Made by a program: the position numbers and the translations under genes
Part shown: positions 9,313 through 19,242 of the stretch, piece by piece
Position numbering within the stretch: position 1 is the first letter of the stretch
Layout: each line of letters starts with the position of its first letter
Origin: Perkinsus olseni
Lineage: Eukaryota
NCBI GenBank assembly: GCA_013115125.1
Contig: JABANN010000109.1
Span: forward strand, 50,498 to 70,497
Reading direction: 5' to 3'
DNA length: 20,000 nt
Notes under the pieces: model-generated
Told to the model about the DNA's origin: nothing
The model's database searches: none
Seen by the model: only the letters and a program-made list of their open reading frames with translations

Positions 9313-10272
9313 ATGAACTGGAGGCTAGAGACGCCTGACGCCATTAAAGATGGCGTGAAAAAACTGCTGAACCTTTCGATGCTCGTCGAAGACTGCACGA
9401 GGGCGTGCTTTGATCCAGTTTCCGGAAAAAATTCCATCGTGTGAAATCGCCGATAGCAGCGTAGAATCGGACGGAGTAGAATCGCGCACAATGTATGATC
9501 AGATCAGTTCCGGCGGACGATTCGTTAATTGGTCCCGGTAGCCACGAGTGAGCGATCTCCGGGAAGTCCTGGCAGAATCGACTGTCACCAGAGACGACGT
9601 TGCAAACTCCGGCTTCACTGAAGTTGCCGCAATGTTCGAGTATCGTCAGAGTTGCATGGGTTGGCCTTAAGGAACCGCCGAATCGGTACGTAAAATTTAG
9701 GGCCGAGAGGTGCAAGAATCGACGGGAATTTCTGCGCCTTGCTCGTGGCCGGCATGTGAACGGATGGTACCATCGTACCATCGTGCTCGGAGTGGTCTTA
9801 ATTGCATCGGTGTCCGATTGAAGGGAAAACCAATTGTTTACAGTACTCATCACGATCGAAGCTGACACTGAGGCGAACGCTGTTCCGGGTACTCGTGAGA
9901 GAAGATTCACCGTGCTTTGATTGGAAACGAGATTAAACACGTACAATATGGTAGATTACACGGGTCGCAAGTGGCATGCTCACCAGCCCGGAGCATCCAA
10001 TCGAACAGTATGTTGAAGACATCCCCGTGAAGTCGCGCCCTCGCCCTCCGAACGCAGTCAGCTATCGATCATGGATTTCTGATACGTGCGCGATCATCCC
10101 AATTACGTGGCGCGTCAACCGCTCGAAATTTCCATTTCCAGCCTGACCTGCCTTCGTCGCATGCTTCAGTTGCAACCAATACTCCAAAGCCGCTTTCTCG
10201 ACTATGTACTTATCTTCTGTGGGGGATGGATTCTACCAGACGTGTCGCTCGTTAAAACTCATTTCGCCTTGA
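9313..10272 (+). CDS. Hypothetical multi-exon protein
   Basis: Open blocks are bounded by plausible AG/GT sites: MNWRLETPDAIKDGVKKLLNLSMLVEDCTRACFDP..., PEHPIEQYVEDIPVKSRPRPPNAVSYRSWISDT|LTCLRRMLQLQPILQSRFLDY. The middle exon frames are ambiguous and no family was recognised. Confidence 0.35.
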
Positions 10273-10365
10273 GCCAGGAATTCTCAGTGGGGTAAAGAAG
10301 TCCTCCTCCCCCTCTGGCGATTATCGATCGTAGTTGCCAACCCTTTTTAAATTCTGTCTTGCAAC

Positions 10366-13223
10366 ATGAGCCGCGATTCTGACGAGCAGCAGGCGTCGGG
10401 CTCTCGAGCTGTGGACCATGGTAGGCCACTGTTGCTACAACAATGCCGCGGTCGCCTTTATCCTTCTCGAATAGCTGTCTTCGGTCCATCTTAAGCCGTG
10501 CGGTCGCACTTGTGGCCCAGAGCATCTCCTTTAAGGGAAGTGAAGAGCACGATAGAATTGCAGAGTTTAACTGAGCATGGTACGCTTGGATCTTGCGCTG
10601 AGCGCTTCTTTCTCAGGCTCCGGGACTTCTGAGACCCCCGAGGACCGTAAAGCGAGGTTGATGGCGGCCAAAATGTATGACGGCTATGGCGACCGTTGCC
10701 GCTGATGGTAGCAGGCCCTTCTCAGTTCGATTTTTCTCAGGCCGGAGCAACGCTCTTATGACTATCTCTCTGACGAGGACAGCCTTTGCTCGGATTATGA
10801 AGAAGGTAGCGGCGAGTGAGCTGCCTCGTCGTTGTCGATGTGCGGTCGTCTTAGTGTCGTCGGATGCATCTTCAGCAGCGCACTACGCCTCGGTCTCGAA
10901 CGATGGCGGGCCTCGAGGCATCAAGCGGGTATGGATTACGTTTTTGTGTTGATGCCGTGACCATTGAGCGTCTCAGGTTCGTCGGACGAGCTCACCACGA
11001 GCGAGCCTTCAGAAGAGATGTTCCTCGGATATTAAAAAGCGGAAGATCTCTTGTTCTACCAGCTCTAGCGACAGTGAGTCTGAGCTTTTATGATAAGCCT
11101 AACTATTCACGGCCGCGGTTTCTGATGCAAGAAAGCATTTCGTGGGTCTCTCCATCGTACCTTGAAAGCTCCTATGAGCATTCGTCGGCGGGGATGTTGC
11201 CTTGACGAGAACTCGGGTCGTGTCCCATCGGGTGGCGGCTACAGCCTCCCCGCAACCTCCTACCATTGTCTTGTTAGACTGTCACACGCTGGCAGAAGCG
11301 CACGAGGAAGGTCGGTCGCCTAGGGCCGCAAGTGGTCTCACCGAGGAGCTTTGTGGCCCAGCCTTCGATGACTACTGCAAGTGCGACGACCCGCAGGATC
11401 CGGTGTCGTTGGTAAGCTTCGTGGGGCATTCTCGGCGACGTGTAGGCTGTCCGGTATTCGCGACAAGCTCGGAATCCCGAGTGATCAGCGACCGTGCCAG
11501 TTGATGGTGGTTTGCTTCAGCAACGGATTTGGGTCGAAGGCCAAGACGGCGGTCGGAAAGCTAGCGACGAGATAGAGTTTCTGTTTTCGTATTATGAAGA
11601 TGACAAGTTCATTAGAGGTGAGTCGCCGCTTTGGGTGTGTGCATGCGTGCATACTCACTGTGCAGGATTCTCCATCACAACATTGCAGTACATGCTCCGG
11701 CAGCCTCGTCCGATTCAGCATCCCGTCAGTCGAAAGGTCATACCCGATTCTGTTCTGGAGCGGGCGGAGCAAATGGTCAAGGTAGCGAGCTTCGCCGGCC
11801 GCATGGGTGAGGTGTCTTTATCTTGCAGCATCTAGAGTCAACCGGTGCAATTGACCCGGTCACTGTGAGAGACCTAGCATCCGTACCGCTCAAGGACCTG
11901 ACAAGGCGGGACGTGCAGCAGCTCAGCTTGGAGGTACTTGGGGGGTTCACTCTGTGCTAATGTATGCAGCCTCGACTGGTGATTGCTGAGTGCTTCAGGT
12001 GTGGCAGTTGATGGCTCGGCAGTCGGTCTACGTCGAGGAGGACACTCTGGTCGATATGGACCGGGCACAACTTTGTAATACGGACTTTAGCTCCCCTCTT
12101 CTCAGCAGTTTCTCGGCTCAGTAATGCTCAACTCCGAGCTTCGGTCGATGTTCACCGAGAACTTCACTGTGGAGCAGCGGCGGCTGTTCTATCCCCCGGA
12201 TGGCACCCCGTTTATGAAGATCCACGAGGCGATTATCGGAGGCAGCGAGGTGGGCTCCTCGAACTCGGCAGCTGCCTGGCGCCAGCAGTGATGCTGGTTA
12301 GGACATACCTCCCAGCTCTCGGTCGTTGGGTGCTGTGCAGGGCATTCTGAGGGACTTGCGGACAGTAGGTTCACGTTCATCGTTCCGTCATGGGCGGCCT
12401 GGGTAGACGAAATACTTTAGGCCCGTCCTGAGAGGCCTGTCCTGTGATAAATGTGTTTGGGATCTCCTCGATGCCGTGATGGGAGTTCTCGCCGGAGTGT
12501 GGAAACTAGGGTTCGCGCGGAGTGTGTCGCAGAGCTCTGAAATGATCTGGGTTGTATGGTAGTAGTGGGTGATTGCCTCAGATACTCACCAACGCCCCTG
12601 AAAATATGAAGTTCATGGTCTCGTATGTCATAGTGGGGGCGCTGGCAGTAGTCAGTAGCCCCATCAGGGCCAGGTGAGTTCTTCGGAATGGGCCGCAGCT
12701 CCGCTCCGGCCATACCCCTTATCAAGGGAAATGTTATAGCTTTGTTGGCGACGGACGAAGTAGATACGCTGAGGGATGGGAATCATTCGTTGTAGACCCC
12801 GACTGGGGAAGTTGCCGGTGTAGTCGCAAACACTCATGCAACGTCAGGAGTGCACCACACTTGGTGTGAGGCGGTACGCCTAGGTGCTGACGGTCTTTTG
12901 AGTGCTGAGGGCTTCGGCACAATCGACTGCGGACCGTATTGTACACACGATGTCGTCGTATGACGGCTCGCTGTGAGTTTTAGCGCTTGATGAGGTTGCA
13001 TGGAGCGCATGTGGCGTGCGGGTGGATGAAAAGCTGCTACGAAGTATCAATGGCGGGAAGGATCGGGTTTAGGTACATGACTGGACTCAGTCATTCTTTC
13101 GAAATCCCACCAACGGGTATACATGGTGACGATGGGTACTCGTCTGACGGGGATGATGGCGAGTTCGGCCATGGCGTTGAAGAGGATGATTCTGACGGAG
13201 AGGACTTGGGTGACGAATTCTGA
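10366..13223 (+). CDS. Multi-exon protein: low-complexity Ser/acidic/basic N-terminus, a degenerate U-box/RING-like plus helical domain resembling an NCLDV conserved hypothetical family, and an acidic tail
   Basis: Mostly phase-consistent splicing runs from MSRDSDEQQ through CDDPQDPVSL|QRIWVEG..FLFSYYEDDKFIRG|FSITTLQYML..QHPVSRKVIPDSVLERA..LSLE|VWQLMARQSVYVEEDTL..LNSELRSMFTENFTVEQRRLFYPPDGTPF..KFMVSYVIVGALAVVSSPIRAR|YMTGLSHSF to EDLGDEF*. The junction near 11093-11130 is unresolved. Confidence 0.75.
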
Positions 13224-13649
13224 CAAGTCGTCATACCAACTTTTTTGAAGATTTCGGCGGCTTCGCTGACCTACTACTTTTGTTAATATTTCCGTTCTGT
13301 CACAATTCTTGCCAGCTCGATCTGGCACCAGCAGCAGCCGCCCGTATCTCCTAGAAGAATCAAGAAAGAGGATTGCCGGGGCGGCGGCGGCGAGTGGAAA
13401 ACACTATCGAATGCTATAGTCGTAGCTGTAGGTGTTGCATATTTATCATCATACTACTACTAACATGACGTCCCGCTTACTTGCACGGTTAGTCATCGTC
13501 GTCTGTACCACTACCAGTATTATGATCAGTCAGTGAAGTTCTTGTCGAATTTATTCGAGGCCTCCCTGAAGAGTTGCGCTTTAATGAGCACGAGCGTTGG
13601 CAGCCGAGGCTAAGGCCACTCGGAGGTGCCTTTTCTTTGCTTTTTAGCG

Positions 13650-15112
13650 ATGTCCTCTTCTAATGTGGTTGTGGTTCAGATCGGGCAATGCGGCAATCAG
13701 GTTGGCGAGGTCGTTTATGACTGCCTTTGGGAGGAGTTAAATCAACTGAGGAGACCAGGGGGCAATGCTCTCCTGGCTGACAGGCTGCACAGCACGTTCT
13801 TCGACGGGGCGGATCGAGCCCGAGCGGCTCTGATCGACATGGAGCCTAAGGTTATTCAGGGCCTGCTCTCCCGGAAACGCTGCAATCGGTGGAGCTACGG
13901 TGGTGACAAGTCCCTCTACTTGCAGAGCGGCAGCGGCAACAGCTGGATGACAGGGTACTCGGTCCTGGCCAAGGGTCAAACGTCCGAGCTGGCGGCTGAT
14001 GTGATTCGGAGAACAGCGGAGAGTTGCGATAGAGTGGACGCCTTCCTGACGCTGTGTAGCGGTGCTGGGGGGACTGGTAGTGGGTACGGCAGCTATGTGA
14101 TCTCGGAGATCCTAAACGACTACTGCGGACTCAAGCACGGGTCGGCTTGCAGTGTTGTTGTGTGCCCGTTTGAGAGGGGGGAGGTGTCCGTGCAGAACTA
14201 TAATACAGCGCTATCACTGGCTACGGCAGTGGAGACGGGGGAGCTGACTATCACGTTCTCGAACTCTGCTTTGGAAAGTGAAGTAGGGGGCAAGGGCGGA
14301 GGTCTCACGGCGATCAACAGGAAGCTCGCCCGGACGCTAGTGGACAGCTTGCTGGTGCCCTCACGACTGTCGCCGGTTGGGACACTGGCAGAGGCTTCCC
14401 GCCATCTGGTTGGTCATCCGGATCATACAGTCGCGAGCTGTTGCTCAGTGCCGAGCATGGCACATTATGAGTTCTCTAGTGACACTTGGATGGGCCTATC
14501 GAAGGACCTCAGCGACAGGTGGAAGGGACGAAGCGCCACAGCTCTCCTCCATGCTTGCGGTGTTGGTGCCGACAAGCTGGATGATAGTGTGAGTAAGGGA
14601 GAGTGGGCGATGACCTGATGTTCTCGCTTTTATGCGGCTAACGTACTGTCACGTCTTCGGCCTCGAGCGTGGATCAGTGACTGTCCCGTGACAGCGTGAC
14701 GAGGGTATTGGGATGCTATGAGATTGTCATATGGTAGTCACCGTCCAGACGACCGCCTTAGGTGATGCTACCGTTCAAGTCCAAGGGCCGCTACTTTTCT
14801 CACGTGGCGCATCCACTGCGAATGGCCATCAATCCGGTAGCCCGTCGGGTCCCTAGTAGATCCCTGTCTGTTGTCGCCACCGACCAGAGAGCCCTGCAAC
14901 CTGTGGGTCCACGGATCCCTCCTTGTCGCTGCAGTACGTTTGTGGTTCAGGTGGCACACGTCGTCAGCCGCTGTAAGGCCGCCTTATCAAGAGGAGCATT
15001 CATCCACCATTACGGTGGTCATGAGGGGGAGGCTCGGATCGCCGATGCCCTGGCCACTCTGAGCGCCACCTTGCAGAGGTCGCATGCCATGTCGCCTGGG
15101 GAGGGAGGCTGA
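13650..15112 (+). CDS. TUBD1: Delta-tubulin (divergent), long first exon plus short 3' exons
   Basis: Motifs include VVVVQIGQCGNQVG, RAALIDMEPKVI, W.Y, GSGNSWMTGY, the tubulin signature GGTGSG, VCPFERGEVSVQNYN and C-terminal GAFIHHY. MEPKV and GEVxVQNYN are delta-type. A polypyrimidine tract plus AG sits immediately before the ATG. Confidence 0.85.
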
Positions 15113-15290
15113 GCTCAGAGCCAATTCATATTTCAATCCCATTGGCCACTTCTCTGCGTTCATAACCTGTGCTGCTGCTGCTGTTCGTTCGCGTCATGCT
15201 TCTCCTGACGGAAGGCGAAGTGAGACTGGTGCTTCTCGTGCGGGCTCTCTCGCAGCTATTACCTTTCACTTTGCTTCCTTCACTCTACTT

Positions 15291-17597
15291 ATGGCAAAGA
15301 CCCGGCTGGCGGCGGCGGCGCTCCTAGCGTCTCATATCATAGCAGGAACCTCGGTGGCCGAGCATATGTTGAGAAGGACTCTCAGTTTGGACGGCGTCTT
15401 AAGTACGACTAGCGTGGGCACGCGTGCACCGTCCCCGTGAATTCGCCGGAGTGTCGTGCAAGCTGCGCATTGGAGGGCCCTCCTTGGTATCGCCGTTTAT
15501 CGATGAAGGGGATGACAAGAGCTGCCTGGTCGCATAAGTATTCAGTCGTTCTGTGACTCCGTGACTGCGGTGTTGAGACTGACTTGGGGGATAGCAGCAA
15601 GGGTGGTTCATGTCGGAGACAAGGAGCTATACTGGGCAGTACTGAAGAGAACTGTGGCTCCTCCCCTGTTGTACAACCTTTAACTTATACAGGGCTCCAA
15701 GTTGAAATAGAATATTGCGTTTTTTTGGAATTTCTCTTTCACTTTGACGTGTTTTGGGCTGAGACTTGGTAGGGTACGCTAGTACATCCCCCTATAGATA
15801 CCCTATGAGTTTTGGCTATCATCTCGCGGTGGCAGACGAGAACCGGGAAATTAGCTCGAAAAAGTTGTCAAATATAAATAGAATATACACTGTAAATTTT
15901 ACCCTGGAATCCGCGTTTTTGCTAGAGAATCACAAGAAATAATGCGAATCTGATAATAAGCTGTACACCAATCGAAAAGCCGCGTATCCAATACCTATAC
16001 CTAGATGTGTCATGTAGAGAGTTGACCTAACTTGCTAGAAAGCCCAGCTGGAAGTCAGCCGTTCCCGATTTGCATCTTTTCACGGTTTAATATGGCACGT
16101 TTGGAGATTAACTATCTCTTTCGCCTCGTTCCCTATGAACTCTCTCCAACTCTCTAGGTATTGAATACGCGGCTTTTCGATTGGTGTACAGCTTATTATC
16201 AGATTCGCATTATTTCTCGTGATTCTCTAGCAAAAACGCGGATTCCAGGGTAAAATTTGAAGTGTATATTCTATTTATATTTGGCAGCTTTTTCGAGCTA
16301 ATTTCCCGGTTCTCGTCTGCCACCACGAGATGATAGCTAAAATTCATAGGGTATCTATAGGGGGATGTATTAGCATACCCTACCAAGTCTCAGCCCGAAA
16401 CACGTCAATCTGAGAGAGAAATTCCAAAAAAAAACGCAATATTCTATTTCAACTTGGAGCCCTGTACTCTCACACCGTGTGATGTGATTACAAACGCTTC
16501 CAGCGGTCTAGGCTCTGCGGGACGGGAACCCACCCTTCTCAGGCGACCCCACGCCGACTGCGGCAGCTCCGACAGTACAGCCGAGCGTGACGTCGACACT
16601 AGCGTCAACAGCAGGAGCCTCTACTGTTGCGCCGGCGTCAACCGACGCTCCGATGACGGTCAGTGCTGCGCCGACCCCCTCGGCCGCTCGAACGACTTCC
16701 GCTGACGCGAAGCAAGGTGAGAGATTGAACTCAGTGGATGCATTCGCCGGTCGCTGGGCCGTACGTTTGACCGTCGTTGCGGAGCCGCTACCACGATGAG
16801 CAGTACGCGACGCCTGCTTGCGCTGCTGTTCAGAATCACCAGCGGCTTCAGCCCGGGCCCCTCCGACATCGCCTTCCCTTGCGACAGCCCTGCCCCCCAC
16901 TGTGGCGGCGCAGAGTACAGTGGCCCCGGTCCCGACTGTGGCGACAACTTCTGCCCAGCAAAGCGTGACGGAGTGGGGCGATAGCTGAGCTATCATAGCT
17001 CAGTGGGGGTTCTGGGGTTTACCACGTGGCTCCCTTATCAGTTCCGGTACGAGCTTCGGCACTTTGCTGTTGCATTGCCTTCTCATCGGCTTGGGCCTCG
17101 GCTTTCTGGTCTGGGCGGTGGTGCTGGTCCACGAGCGGTGAGCGCCGAGGGTGCGGTGGGGTTGTTGATAGAACTATTGGTGTCAGTTGGAGAGACCATT
17201 ATAGAGTGCCTGAGAGACAGTCCAAGTCCAGCCAGAGAGTAGCAGCACGGTCCAAGGTAAGTGCTGCCTCTTCCGCTCCTCGCTTAGAGGGCTGTCCTCC
17301 CAGATCAGTGACTCCCAGCGAAGCTGGAACGAAGCGACGGATACAGGTGGGTTATTCCCACCTCCACGACACTTGTTGGATGTAGTTGCTCCCTGTTGCT
17401 AGGTGGGGCCGCACTCCCGTCGGAGGTAACCAGCTTCGATGAAGGGCCTCCCTCTACAAGGCGAGTGCCTCGTGTAGGTCAGCGACTCATGAACGCTTTC
17501 GGGACTTCCGTCGTTGTTATCTCAGTATAAGACCAGGAGAGCCGAGGCTCTTCTCGAGCAAAAACGAGGCCTTGGCGAACTGCCGTAATGCCACATG
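15291..17597 (+). CDS. Predicted type-I membrane glycoprotein: signal peptide, small Cys-rich region, Thr/Ser/Ala/Pro mucin-like stalk, one TM helix, cytoplasmic tail
   Basis: The signal-like start is MAKTRLAAAALLASHIIAGTS. Exon 16512-16716 encodes GDPTPTAAAPTVQPSVTSTLASTAGASTVAPAST.... The next exon encodes SPAASARAPPTSPSLATALPPTVAAQSTVAPVPTVATTS. The TM exon (~17042-17137) encodes FGTLLLHCLLIGLGLGFLVWAVVLV, followed by the basic HER|WRDHYR. The 5' Cys-rich exons and the last exon are uncertain. Confidence 0.7.
15690..16464. mobile_element. Non-autonomous Tc1/mariner-type MITE/foldback element, 775 bp, ~308-310 bp TIRs, TA target-site duplication
   Basis: The ends read TA|CAGGGCTCCAAGTTGAAATAG ... 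CTATTTCAACTTGGAGCCCTG|TA. The arms 15690-15997 and 16155-16464 differ by about 15 substitutions and a 2-nt homopolymer indel (manual count, ~95% identity). The spacer is 157 bp, the element is AT-rich relative to its flanks, and there is no transposase ORF. Confidence 0.93.
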
Positions 17598-17748
17598 ACT
17601 TAGCAGAGCCCTGGGCTCCCAGTGGGGCCACCGCTGTTATTAAGGCTGACCTACCGCCTGTGCTGAGTTGTGGCGGCTGAGTCAATCCGAGCCGAAGTGT
17701 GTTTCTTTGTCGTCAGTTGTCGACTACTGTTATTAGAACCATCGCCAG

Positions 17749-19242
17749 ATGTCTTCTATTACACTCCTCCCCGTCCATCGCTTTCCTCCAGACCAATGCG
17801 TTCTCGTCCGCTACGTGAATACCTTCCCAAAGTTCTTCGAGTTTGACTTCACGGCCTGTTCCCTGAGCAGCGGCAGCAGCAGCAGCTCGCCTCGTTCGAC
17901 GATGTACCAACCGCAGTATGACGGAGACCAAAACGGCCTCAGCGCATGCGGTCGGCATACTTGTCCAGCTTCAAGGTCTTCTGCGAAGCGGCGCTATAGT
18001 AGCTCCCCGCCGGGGTTCAGTCGAGACGGCGATCAGGTGGACGACGAATGTTTAGACGATTTGTCTTCTCCCGAACCCGGTTGTACGGCCGTGGTTGAGT
18101 CGTCCTGCGGAGTGGCTGCCAATGTTGATGTCGCTACCACGAGCAGTGAGGTCGAGGGAGATGACGACGACGGCAGAACTGCAACCACGGCTCGTCTCAC
18201 TACTGTTATGCTGCGTAACATACCCAGTCGCTACTCGAGCAAGGATTTCTGCGAAGTTCTGCGCGCCAAAGGCTTCGAGCCCGGTGTCCACTACGATTTC
18301 GTCTACTTGCCCGCAGATTTCCGTGACTACTCTTGTCTGGGATACGGCTTTATCAATTTCAAGACGTATACGGTGGCCAAGGCTTTTAACGCCATGTTCC
18401 ACGGGCTCAAGCTGCCGTTCTCCAATGGTTCTGGGAAAATCTGTCAAACCAGTTGGGCTCGTATTCAGGGCTTCCTCGATAACGTCAGGCACGCGCAGCA
18501 CTCGGCAAATCATGATTTGCCTCCCTTCTTCCGTCCTCTGGCCTTCAATTCTGACGGCAAGGAGGTTACCCTGGACGCGGTTTTGCGTGACGGTTCGCCA
18601 GGCAGCAGATCTTCTATGGCTGGCGGCGGGCCGGGGAGCCGGGGAGGCCGAGGAGCGTCTTCGGGGCTGCTGCCGCCGCAACAACAGCATCATCAGCATC
18701 ATCATCATCGTAGACAGAAAGACAGTGGCCGCGAGAATGAATCTATCAGGTCAAAGGACCATTACGAGCCAGACTCATGCAAGTTCTTTCTCGGTGGCTT
18801 GCCGAGTGAAGAGGAGAGACCTAATTTCTCTAAGGCCAACGTGTCCGAGGGCTTGGCTCCATACCTACCTGCCGGTGTACAGGTGGTTGACTGCGCTATT
18901 CTGAGCGCTGATGAGGCCTGCAATCGCTACGCGTTCGTCAGTCTCAATTCCGCGGACGCTGTTGTCGCCCTCCTGGAGAAGTACTATTTCTCGCCACAAC
19001 TTGGAGCTGTCGGCGTGCAAATAGATGGTTCTTCTGTCTCCCTCAAGCCCTACCGTCGTAGACGTGTTGACAGTGCACCGACTACTGTTGCTGCGTCCCG
19101 GCGGGGATCCAATTGGAGCGTGTCTTCATGGAAGTCCTCTCCAACCGGTCCGAGTGATCGACGGCTGGGAAGCGGCAGAGCCTCAGTTCTGAACAGACCT
19201 ACTAAGGGTCCGGTGAAGGCAGCCAAGTTCACGAGGCGTTGA
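17749..19242 (+). CDS. Mei2-like RNA-binding protein (Mei2 C-terminal RRM / RRM_2 plus a second, divergent RRM), intronless
   Basis: 497 aa ORF containing TTVMLRNIPSRY..YDFVYLPADF..CLGYGFINF..KICQTSWARIQG..FRPL, which are Mei2 RRM3 hallmarks. A second RRM follows with RNP2 KFFLGGLP and RNP1 RYAFVSL. Confidence 0.9.
   Translation: MSSITLLPVHRFPPDQCVLVRYVNTFPKFFEFDFTACSLSSGSSSSSPRSTMYQPQYDGDQNGLSACGRHTCPASRSSAKRRYSSSPPGFSRDGDQVDDECLDDLSSPEPGCTAVVESSCGVAANVDVATTSSEVEGDDDDGRTATTARLTTVMLRNIPSRYSSKDFCEVLRAKGFEPGVHYDFVYLPADFRDYSCLGYGFINFKTYTVAKAFNAMFHGLKLPFSNGSGKICQTSWARIQGFLDNVRHAQHSANHDLPPFFRPLAFNSDGKEVTLDAVLRDGSPGSRSSMAGGGPGSRGGRGASSGLLPPQQQHHQHHHHRRQKDSGRENESIRSKDHYEPDSCKFFLGGLPSEEERPNFSKANVSEGLAPYLPAGVQVVDCAILSADEACNRYAFVSLNSADAVVALLEKYYFSPQLGAVGVQIDGSSVSLKPYRRRRVDSAPTTVAASRRGSNWSVSSWKSSPTGPSDRRLGSGRASVLNRPTKGPVKAAKFTRR
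18679..18708 (+). repeat. CAN/CAT trinucleotide tract encoding QQQHHQHHHH
   Basis: The sequence caacaacagcatcatcagcatcatcatcat lies between the two RRMs. Confidence 0.8.

Follow-up and report, generated by a model that had tools for sequence, protein, structure and literature searches.

Why does Perkinsus olseni encode, in an intron-rich nuclear gene, a protein resembling those of giant viruses, which way did that gene pass, and what might its product do? These questions are raised by a 20,000-nucleotide (nt) stretch of contig JABANN010000109.1 (assembly GCA_013115125.1, positions 50,498 to 70,497, forward strand), called here the window; positions below are counted from its first letter. A preliminary description made from the sequence alone had placed in it, at 11370-13223, a fully intronised gene of about nine exons for a conserved protein of nucleocytoplasmic large DNA viruses (NCLDV), with a degenerate U-box or RING. 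By sequence comparison, a 262-residue core (residues 138-399) of the product, P0002 (NCBI: Perkinsus olseni FOL46_000431), belongs to an unnamed giant-virus family of Imitervirales type. Our best overall explanation, a virus-derived spliced gene whose product resembles a U-box ubiquitin ligase (E3), has in our view about an even chance of being right as a whole.

The splice model was compared with contigs of four runs (of 20 listed), from four studies, placed on 9900-15400; this placement bears on exon joints, with RNA start, end and expression level outside its reach. Thirteen joints, every one GT..AG, lie between 10420 and 13073. All were recovered in runs X1 and X2 (13/13 each), 12/13 in X9 and 10/13 in X6, X9 being the sole run recorded as RNA and the other three RNA by guess only. 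The joined exons form a single frame from the ATG at 10366 to the TGA at 13223, and the predicted product is identical to the stored protein at 436/436 residues. These joints confirm both the proposed splicing and the many-intron nature of the gene: the nine exons correspond to part of exon 6 plus exons 7-14, and every protein motif then listed occurs in the spliced product, in the same order. The range given, however, was too short, since 11370 is codon D148 within exon 6, the ATG lies approximately 1 kb upstream, and exons 1-5 had been overlooked. The run contigs extend 3' past the stop to 13499-13559. In three runs, separate contigs of low depth cover part of the last intron (12674-13072, 399 nt) and may represent retention, pre-mRNA or DNA.

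A DNA search found the stretch once in its own genome (contig C102 of G000), and orthologues are present in P. chesapeaki and P. marinus. Core identity is 220/262 to the former and 212/262 to the latter (212-258/262 across Perkinsus orthologues); over head residues 1-104 the corresponding values are 37/104 and 27/104. The G+C content at third codon positions (GC3) is 0.64 for the gene, 0.67 and 0.60 for two neighbouring genes, and 0.22 as the median of 88 viral members. The flanking genes are cellular, as previously described: malate synthase, an IF-2B-family gene (presumably methylthioribose-phosphate isomerase), a divergent tubulin and an RRM_2 protein. The gene shows several features of a domesticated one, namely splicing, host-like composition, cellular neighbours and conservation across species. 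An artefact, be it a contaminant, a viral fragment endogenised recently or a gene model with wrong joints, could appeal to the three runs only guessed to be RNA, but is hardly conceivable: the contigs join 13 canonical introns, GC3 is host-like, the neighbours are cellular and three Perkinsus species have orthologues. The Perkinsus gene is a real, spliced, conserved, single-copy nuclear gene. Searches of its own genome for an NCLDV capsid and one viral neighbour gene found neither, a result that, lacking a positive control, shows little.

Searching 1.84 billion representatives with the P0002 core (phmmer, E<=0.001) gave 123 matches, divided by amino-acid make-up and tree position into 96 AT-rich viral-type and 27 cellular-type rows. 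The nine viral-type rows looked up were all without a taxon, and viral identity is therefore shown by another route, through 99 IMG/VR loci in three subfamilies (8, 11, and the best 80 of 584, these last being SAP-type and near relatives). The core alone matches 52/99 loci (phmmer, E<=1e-3 scaled to 1.84e9 proteins), comprising 41/88 in one set and 11/11 in the other (best 9e-14), and a profile of 10 Perkinsus and Amoebophrya rows matches 89/99 at the same threshold (best 2e-24). By these comparisons the similarity to giant-virus proteins is beyond chance, and the proposed kinship to a widespread, uncharacterised viral family holds, with significant full-core matches to proteins on giant-virus contigs down to the latter E value. 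The viral motifs named beforehand fit the SAP-headed subfamily (alignment A5), but the best-scoring viral relative is of the 2-cysteine-adaptor type.

The AlphaFold2 (AF2) model (predicted local distance difference test, pLDDT, 94.9; predicted template modelling score, pTM, 0.82) matched BFVD proteins of Tupanvirus, Cafeteria roenbergensis virus (CroV), Faunusvirus and a Megaviridae sample (E 4e-11 to 2e-7). Tupanvirus was the top match (E 4e-11, TM 0.67), the four named among five matches at E<=1e-3 are all giant viruses, and Pithovirus proteins matched weakly. In the Atlas, the core stands beside Nucleocytoviricota clusters (0.95-0.96). Tupanvirus A0A6N1NW45, CroV E3T4L7 (2-cysteine adaptor domain protein) and Faunusvirus A0A3G4ZXE0 share the same two-domain core in sequence and predicted structure. 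The viral genes lack introns, are AT-rich, in many cases have SAP, 2C_adapt or CCCH heads and stop at the core, whereas in Perkinsus 13 introns interrupt the gene and its product has a head of low complexity and an acidic tail. That tail is absent from the viral-type rows, in keeping with the tail first noted: 0/93 have at least 20 residues beyond the core.

No Pfam model covers the core in single exons, four Perkinsus proteins or 114 family members, and NCBIfam, which returned the SWIB fusion row and noise only, does not cover it either. Sequence searches of the PDB gave no real match; the strongest, to a PCIF1_WW protein at E 0.05, was discounted. Word-index searches with alignments returned mainly close kin, and pattern scans of viral contigs and prokaryote genomes with Perkinsus-based queries, which are insensitive and do not show absence, gave no match.

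In each of the three trees, a single branch sets the cellular-type rows apart (Shimodaira-Hasegawa-like approximate likelihood ratio test, SH-aLRT, 99; 99/97 with 54 chosen rows; 98/94 with 42 chosen rows; the first tree omits ten short rows and 13 near-duplicates), and the cellular clade lies inside none of the three documented viral subfamilies. Because rows of similar make-up fall on opposite sides (P0009 and P0014 versus P0048 and P0093), composition alone does not explain the division. All three trees are unrooted, with weak deep branches, so direction rests on distribution, which is wide and old in viruses. Look-ups covered 22 of the 27 cellular-type representatives, of which three come from Perkinsus, five from Amoebophrya and 14 carry no taxon, so that all eight named ones belong to these two genera. 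Its presence in Amoebophrya means that the gene is not peculiar to Perkinsus and that any transfer was old.

We consider a virus-to-host origin fairly probable. One old transfer would have carried the gene from a giant virus to the common ancestor of perkinsids and Syndiniales/dinoflagellates; the gene would then have gained introns, been duplicated, lost its viral head and acquired tails of low complexity. The gene could conversely have arisen in the perkinsid/dinoflagellate ancestor and then been taken by giant viruses: the single branch parting cellular from viral rows is compatible with either direction, U-box folds arose in eukaryotes, and viruses acquired their canonical U-boxes from hosts several times (PMC11915834). 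We judge this course unlikely, because viral rows are far commoner and more diverse (96/123, in three subfamilies plus unplaced rows), gene neighbours are conserved in two viral subfamilies, named cellular homologues are so confined, and midpoint roots, placed for drawing only and weak as evidence, fall among viral rows in 3/3 trees. A wider, unsampled cellular distribution may account for the remainder.

A paralogue at G000:C2808 has a counterpart in P. chesapeaki (P0006). Compared with it, six of the eight core introns have the same position and phase, one corresponds approximately and one is absent, the paralogue sites being predicted. The shared sites and the P. chesapeaki counterpart indicate that duplication came after intron gain and before the species split. 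The paralogue spans 16600-18010 on the minus strand (L010 4600-6010). In its public models (P0005, P0127, P0139, P0140) the first U-box-like motif is missing and the C-terminus is unrelated and partly hydrophobic; the missing upstream exons exist in the genome, and the models are perhaps fused with the next gene.

Paralogues also occur in Amoebophrya, where P0016 and P0022 of strain A25 have gene numbers six apart (GSA25T00015587001, GSA25T00015593001) and g2480 and g2484 of AT5.2 are four apart, pairs that probably stem from old local duplication. A divergent cellular-type subfamily with an altered C-terminus (P0040, P0147-P0151) comes from transcript-length contigs, one row being from the Marine Microbial Eukaryote Transcriptome Sequencing Project (MMETSP); at a guess, these may be core dinoflagellates. 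The P0009/P0013/P0014/P0134 group is counted as cellular by tree position only (sister to Perkinsus, 97/94), and a locus search for this group and for P0018 yielded none.

What the core might do is suggested by its predicted fold. The AF2 model of the N-terminal domain of the P. marinus orthologue has a pLDDT of 97; among the top 50 VIA-align matches, 21/50 titles contain the word RING, and 44/50 are RING/U-box by title and general knowledge of the proteins. The Foldseek list is led by the TRIM21 RING and the E4B U-box, non-significantly, with nothing in the PDB at E<=1e-3. Among named families in the Atlas, the closest is the NleG U-box (0.91, 182 features), which we take to be an active U-box ligase. 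At least three cysteines between the two loop motifs, as potential zinc ligands, occur in only 6/114 rows. Judging from AF2, VIA-align and the Atlas, the domain is probably a zinc-free U-box/RING-like fold with an inserted beta-hairpin, in agreement with the degenerate U-box/RING first read from the DPxS..HPxxR frame.

No columns in the entire family are better conserved than the loop motifs DPVS and HPVSR (among 114 members, D157 in 107/114, P213 in 113/114 and I/V159 in 99/114). Like U-box E3s (PF04564; E4B/Ufd2, CHIP, Prp19) and NleG-type ligases (PF06416), the family combines a predicted RING-like topology without zinc ligands with Asp-Pro and His/Asn-Pro motifs at the loops that in such ligases bind the ubiquitin-conjugating enzyme (E2), a placement made by motif rather than superposition. 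It differs in its inserted hairpin, in a fixed helical C-terminal domain without clear known fold, in the Arg after the second motif, which is not conserved (R216 kept in only 16/114), and in matching no Pfam model: the PF04564 and PF06416 profiles hit 0/4 Perkinsus proteins at E<=10 and 0/114 members at E<=0.01. With its profile unmatched, the gene is not classed as a PF04564 member.

From these models, we think it marginally more probable than its opposite that the protein works like a monomeric U-box E3. The N-terminal domain would act as the ligase, its two loops and central helix would bind ubiquitin-charged E2, and the helical domain, probably a substrate- or partner-binding part, would hold the target. 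Viral SAP, 2-cysteine-adaptor, CCCH or SWIB heads would direct the protein to DNA, to chromatin or to the machinery of transcription/replication; the Perkinsus head has basic motifs, KRVR (83) and KKRK (104), which form a possible nuclear signal and suggest a nuclear target. Under the same origin, the U-box-like domain could instead be a scaffold, a pseudo-ligase or a SUMO-type ligase, the last because SAP plus a RING-like domain recalls Siz/PIAS. We rate this as less probable, the two loop motifs being the most conserved in the family, as expected of an E2-binding face, and the nearest named family being NleG.

For the helical domain, the best structural match is D5 of M1249L from ASFV, the virus of African swine fever, a match that spans the whole D5 range but has a score within noise, 6-7% identity and no sequence support. 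Matches to colicin, CARD and spidroin were read as common bundles. If the domain were homologous to D5, a binder of RPB9 and of the lobe of RPB2, and if the acidic tail corresponded to the M1249L C-tail, the protein could be mainly an RNA-polymerase-associated factor, an alternative that we find very improbable next to a U-box-like ligase.

The viral members give a hint, by inference from heads and gene context, of a DNA- or transcription-directed ligase. Among the 114 members, domains found at E<=0.01 were 2C_adapt (22), SAP (5), IQ (3), and SWIB, HeH, YABBY and a CCCH finger (one each). A SWIB gene lies within the locus in 85/88 loci of two subfamilies (Pfam confirmed on two members) and in 0/11 of the third, and RPB1 is one gene off in the six A4 loci examined. 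Genes for UBE2D-like E2s are common on IMG/VR contigs (125 matches) and also occur in the host genome, but none of 80 IMG/VR loci with such an E2 contains a member of the U-box-like family. SAP or SWIB domains are combined with RING ligases in Siz/PIAS, Rad18 and MDM2; the viral members likewise have a DNA- or chromatin-directed module fused to, or encoded beside, a RING-like domain, a parallel in architecture only, and the Perkinsus protein has no such head. 2C_adapt is also found in the ascovirus DNA-condensing protein P64, although its own role there in DNA binding is doubted (PMC6163548).

Viral-type member P0098, fused to a SWIB/MDM2 domain, echoes the adjoining SWIB gene of other viruses. 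A search for loci of the CCCH-headed viral-type group gave none. For the upstream neighbour genes of two viral subfamilies homology was not shown (hhalign probability 0.1-21%), and a provisional label of single-stranded DNA-binding protein, unconfirmed by Pfam, was dropped. Two viral open reading frames (L191:10927-11646, L196:10518-11198), with a SAP-like-looking head and a CPITL..DPFT pattern, lie at most approximately 600 bp from a UBE2D-like E2 gene. They match the N-terminal domain weakly (E 0.002; hhalign 44%) and possibly form a second hidden U-box family; having no Pfam or PDB U-box match, they provide no firm bridge to U-boxes.

Features of the window are collected in Table 1. The tubulin begins approximately 90 bp beyond the 3' contig end of the gene, is about equidistant from beta and gamma tubulins in the PDB, has two introns joined in X1, and is probably delta-type, by a motif. 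The RRM_2 (Mei2-like) protein is encoded by a 501-codon frame without introns. An AT-rich element of approximately 780 bp has long inverted arms, complementary at 95% over 278 nt and at 100% over a further 39 nt, and resembles a miniature inverted-repeat transposable element (MITE) or foldback element.

Table 1. Coordinates of the gene, its protein regions and nearby features in the window
Feature	Position	Strand	Basis
Complete coding gene: 436 aa in 14 exons, with 13 introns	10366-13223	+	
Ser/Asp-rich, poorly conserved head, residues 1-117 (exons 1-5)	10366-11073	+	joints, translation
N-terminal domain, residues 138-240 (exons 6-9), second motif HPVSR (212-216)	11340-11852	+	AF2, structure lists, column counts
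All-helical C-terminal domain, ~residues 252-387 (exons 9-13)	11886-12673	+	
Exon 1	10366-10420	+	run joints
Exon 2	10617-10674	+	run joints
Exon 3	10741-10805	+	run joints
Exon 4	10855-10928	+	run joints
Exon 5	10977-11073	+	run joints
Exon 6, core start (residue 138 at 11340), first U-box-like motif DPVS (157-160)	11278-11411	+	joints, translation, column counts
Exon 7, FLFSY motif	11521-11617	+	run joints
Exon 8, GFSITTL and HPVSRKVIP	11666-11781	+	run joints
Exon 9	11829-11933	+	run joints
Exons 10-13	11999-12074, 12122-12249, 12302-12364, 12582-12673	+	run joints
Exon 14, core end and acidic tail	13073-13223	+	joints, translation
Acidic tail, residues 400-436	from 13110; stop TGA 13221-13223	+	translation
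Divergent tubulin	13650-15140	+	
AT-rich element with inverted arms	15688-16466		
RRM_2 (Mei2-like) frame	17737-19242	+	

Host genes derived from viruses are already known, as are U-box proteins of viruses. Canonical viral U-boxes are described in PMC11915834, whose accessible text does not mention Perkinsus or dinoflagellates. Literature searches, within the text they reached, found no paper on the family or its presence in Perkinsus; the supplements of Irwin et al. 2022, reportedly a systematic survey of virus-eukaryote transfer, could list it. The dinoflagellate/viral nucleoprotein (DVNP) is common to large DNA viruses and the dinoflagellate lineage and is proposed to be virus-derived (PMC9651163, PMC10624901), and is reported absent from marine alveolate group I (MALV-I) and psammosids (PMC10624901). 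It resembles the Perkinsus gene in being shared by such viruses and this lineage, but is unrelated in sequence. To our knowledge Perkinsus has no DVNP, and given these absences the Perkinsus gene would mark an earlier or separate transfer.

These results provide a first structural reading, as a U-box-like plus a helical domain, for a large giant-virus family outside Pfam, and a case of such a family kept as an ordinary spliced gene, with two old paralogues, in Perkinsus and Amoebophrya. Perkinsus grows in culture, and offers a route to a protein whose viral relatives come mostly from uncultured viruses. If the gene passed from virus to host, DVNP would not be the only old gift of viruses to the dinoflagellate lineage, and this second one would reach a deeper branch. 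A bolder scenario, in our view a long shot, has giant viruses in the mimivirus order encoding a ubiquitin ligase, so far unrecognised, for DNA-bound machines, with a helical domain kin to M1249L D5. The perkinsid/dinoflagellate ancestor would have captured it before DVNP, retained it and duplicated it, and its role there would be the tagging of RNA polymerase or of proteins of chromatin. If that were true, viruses would through this gene have contributed early on to the remodelled nucleus of dinoflagellate type.
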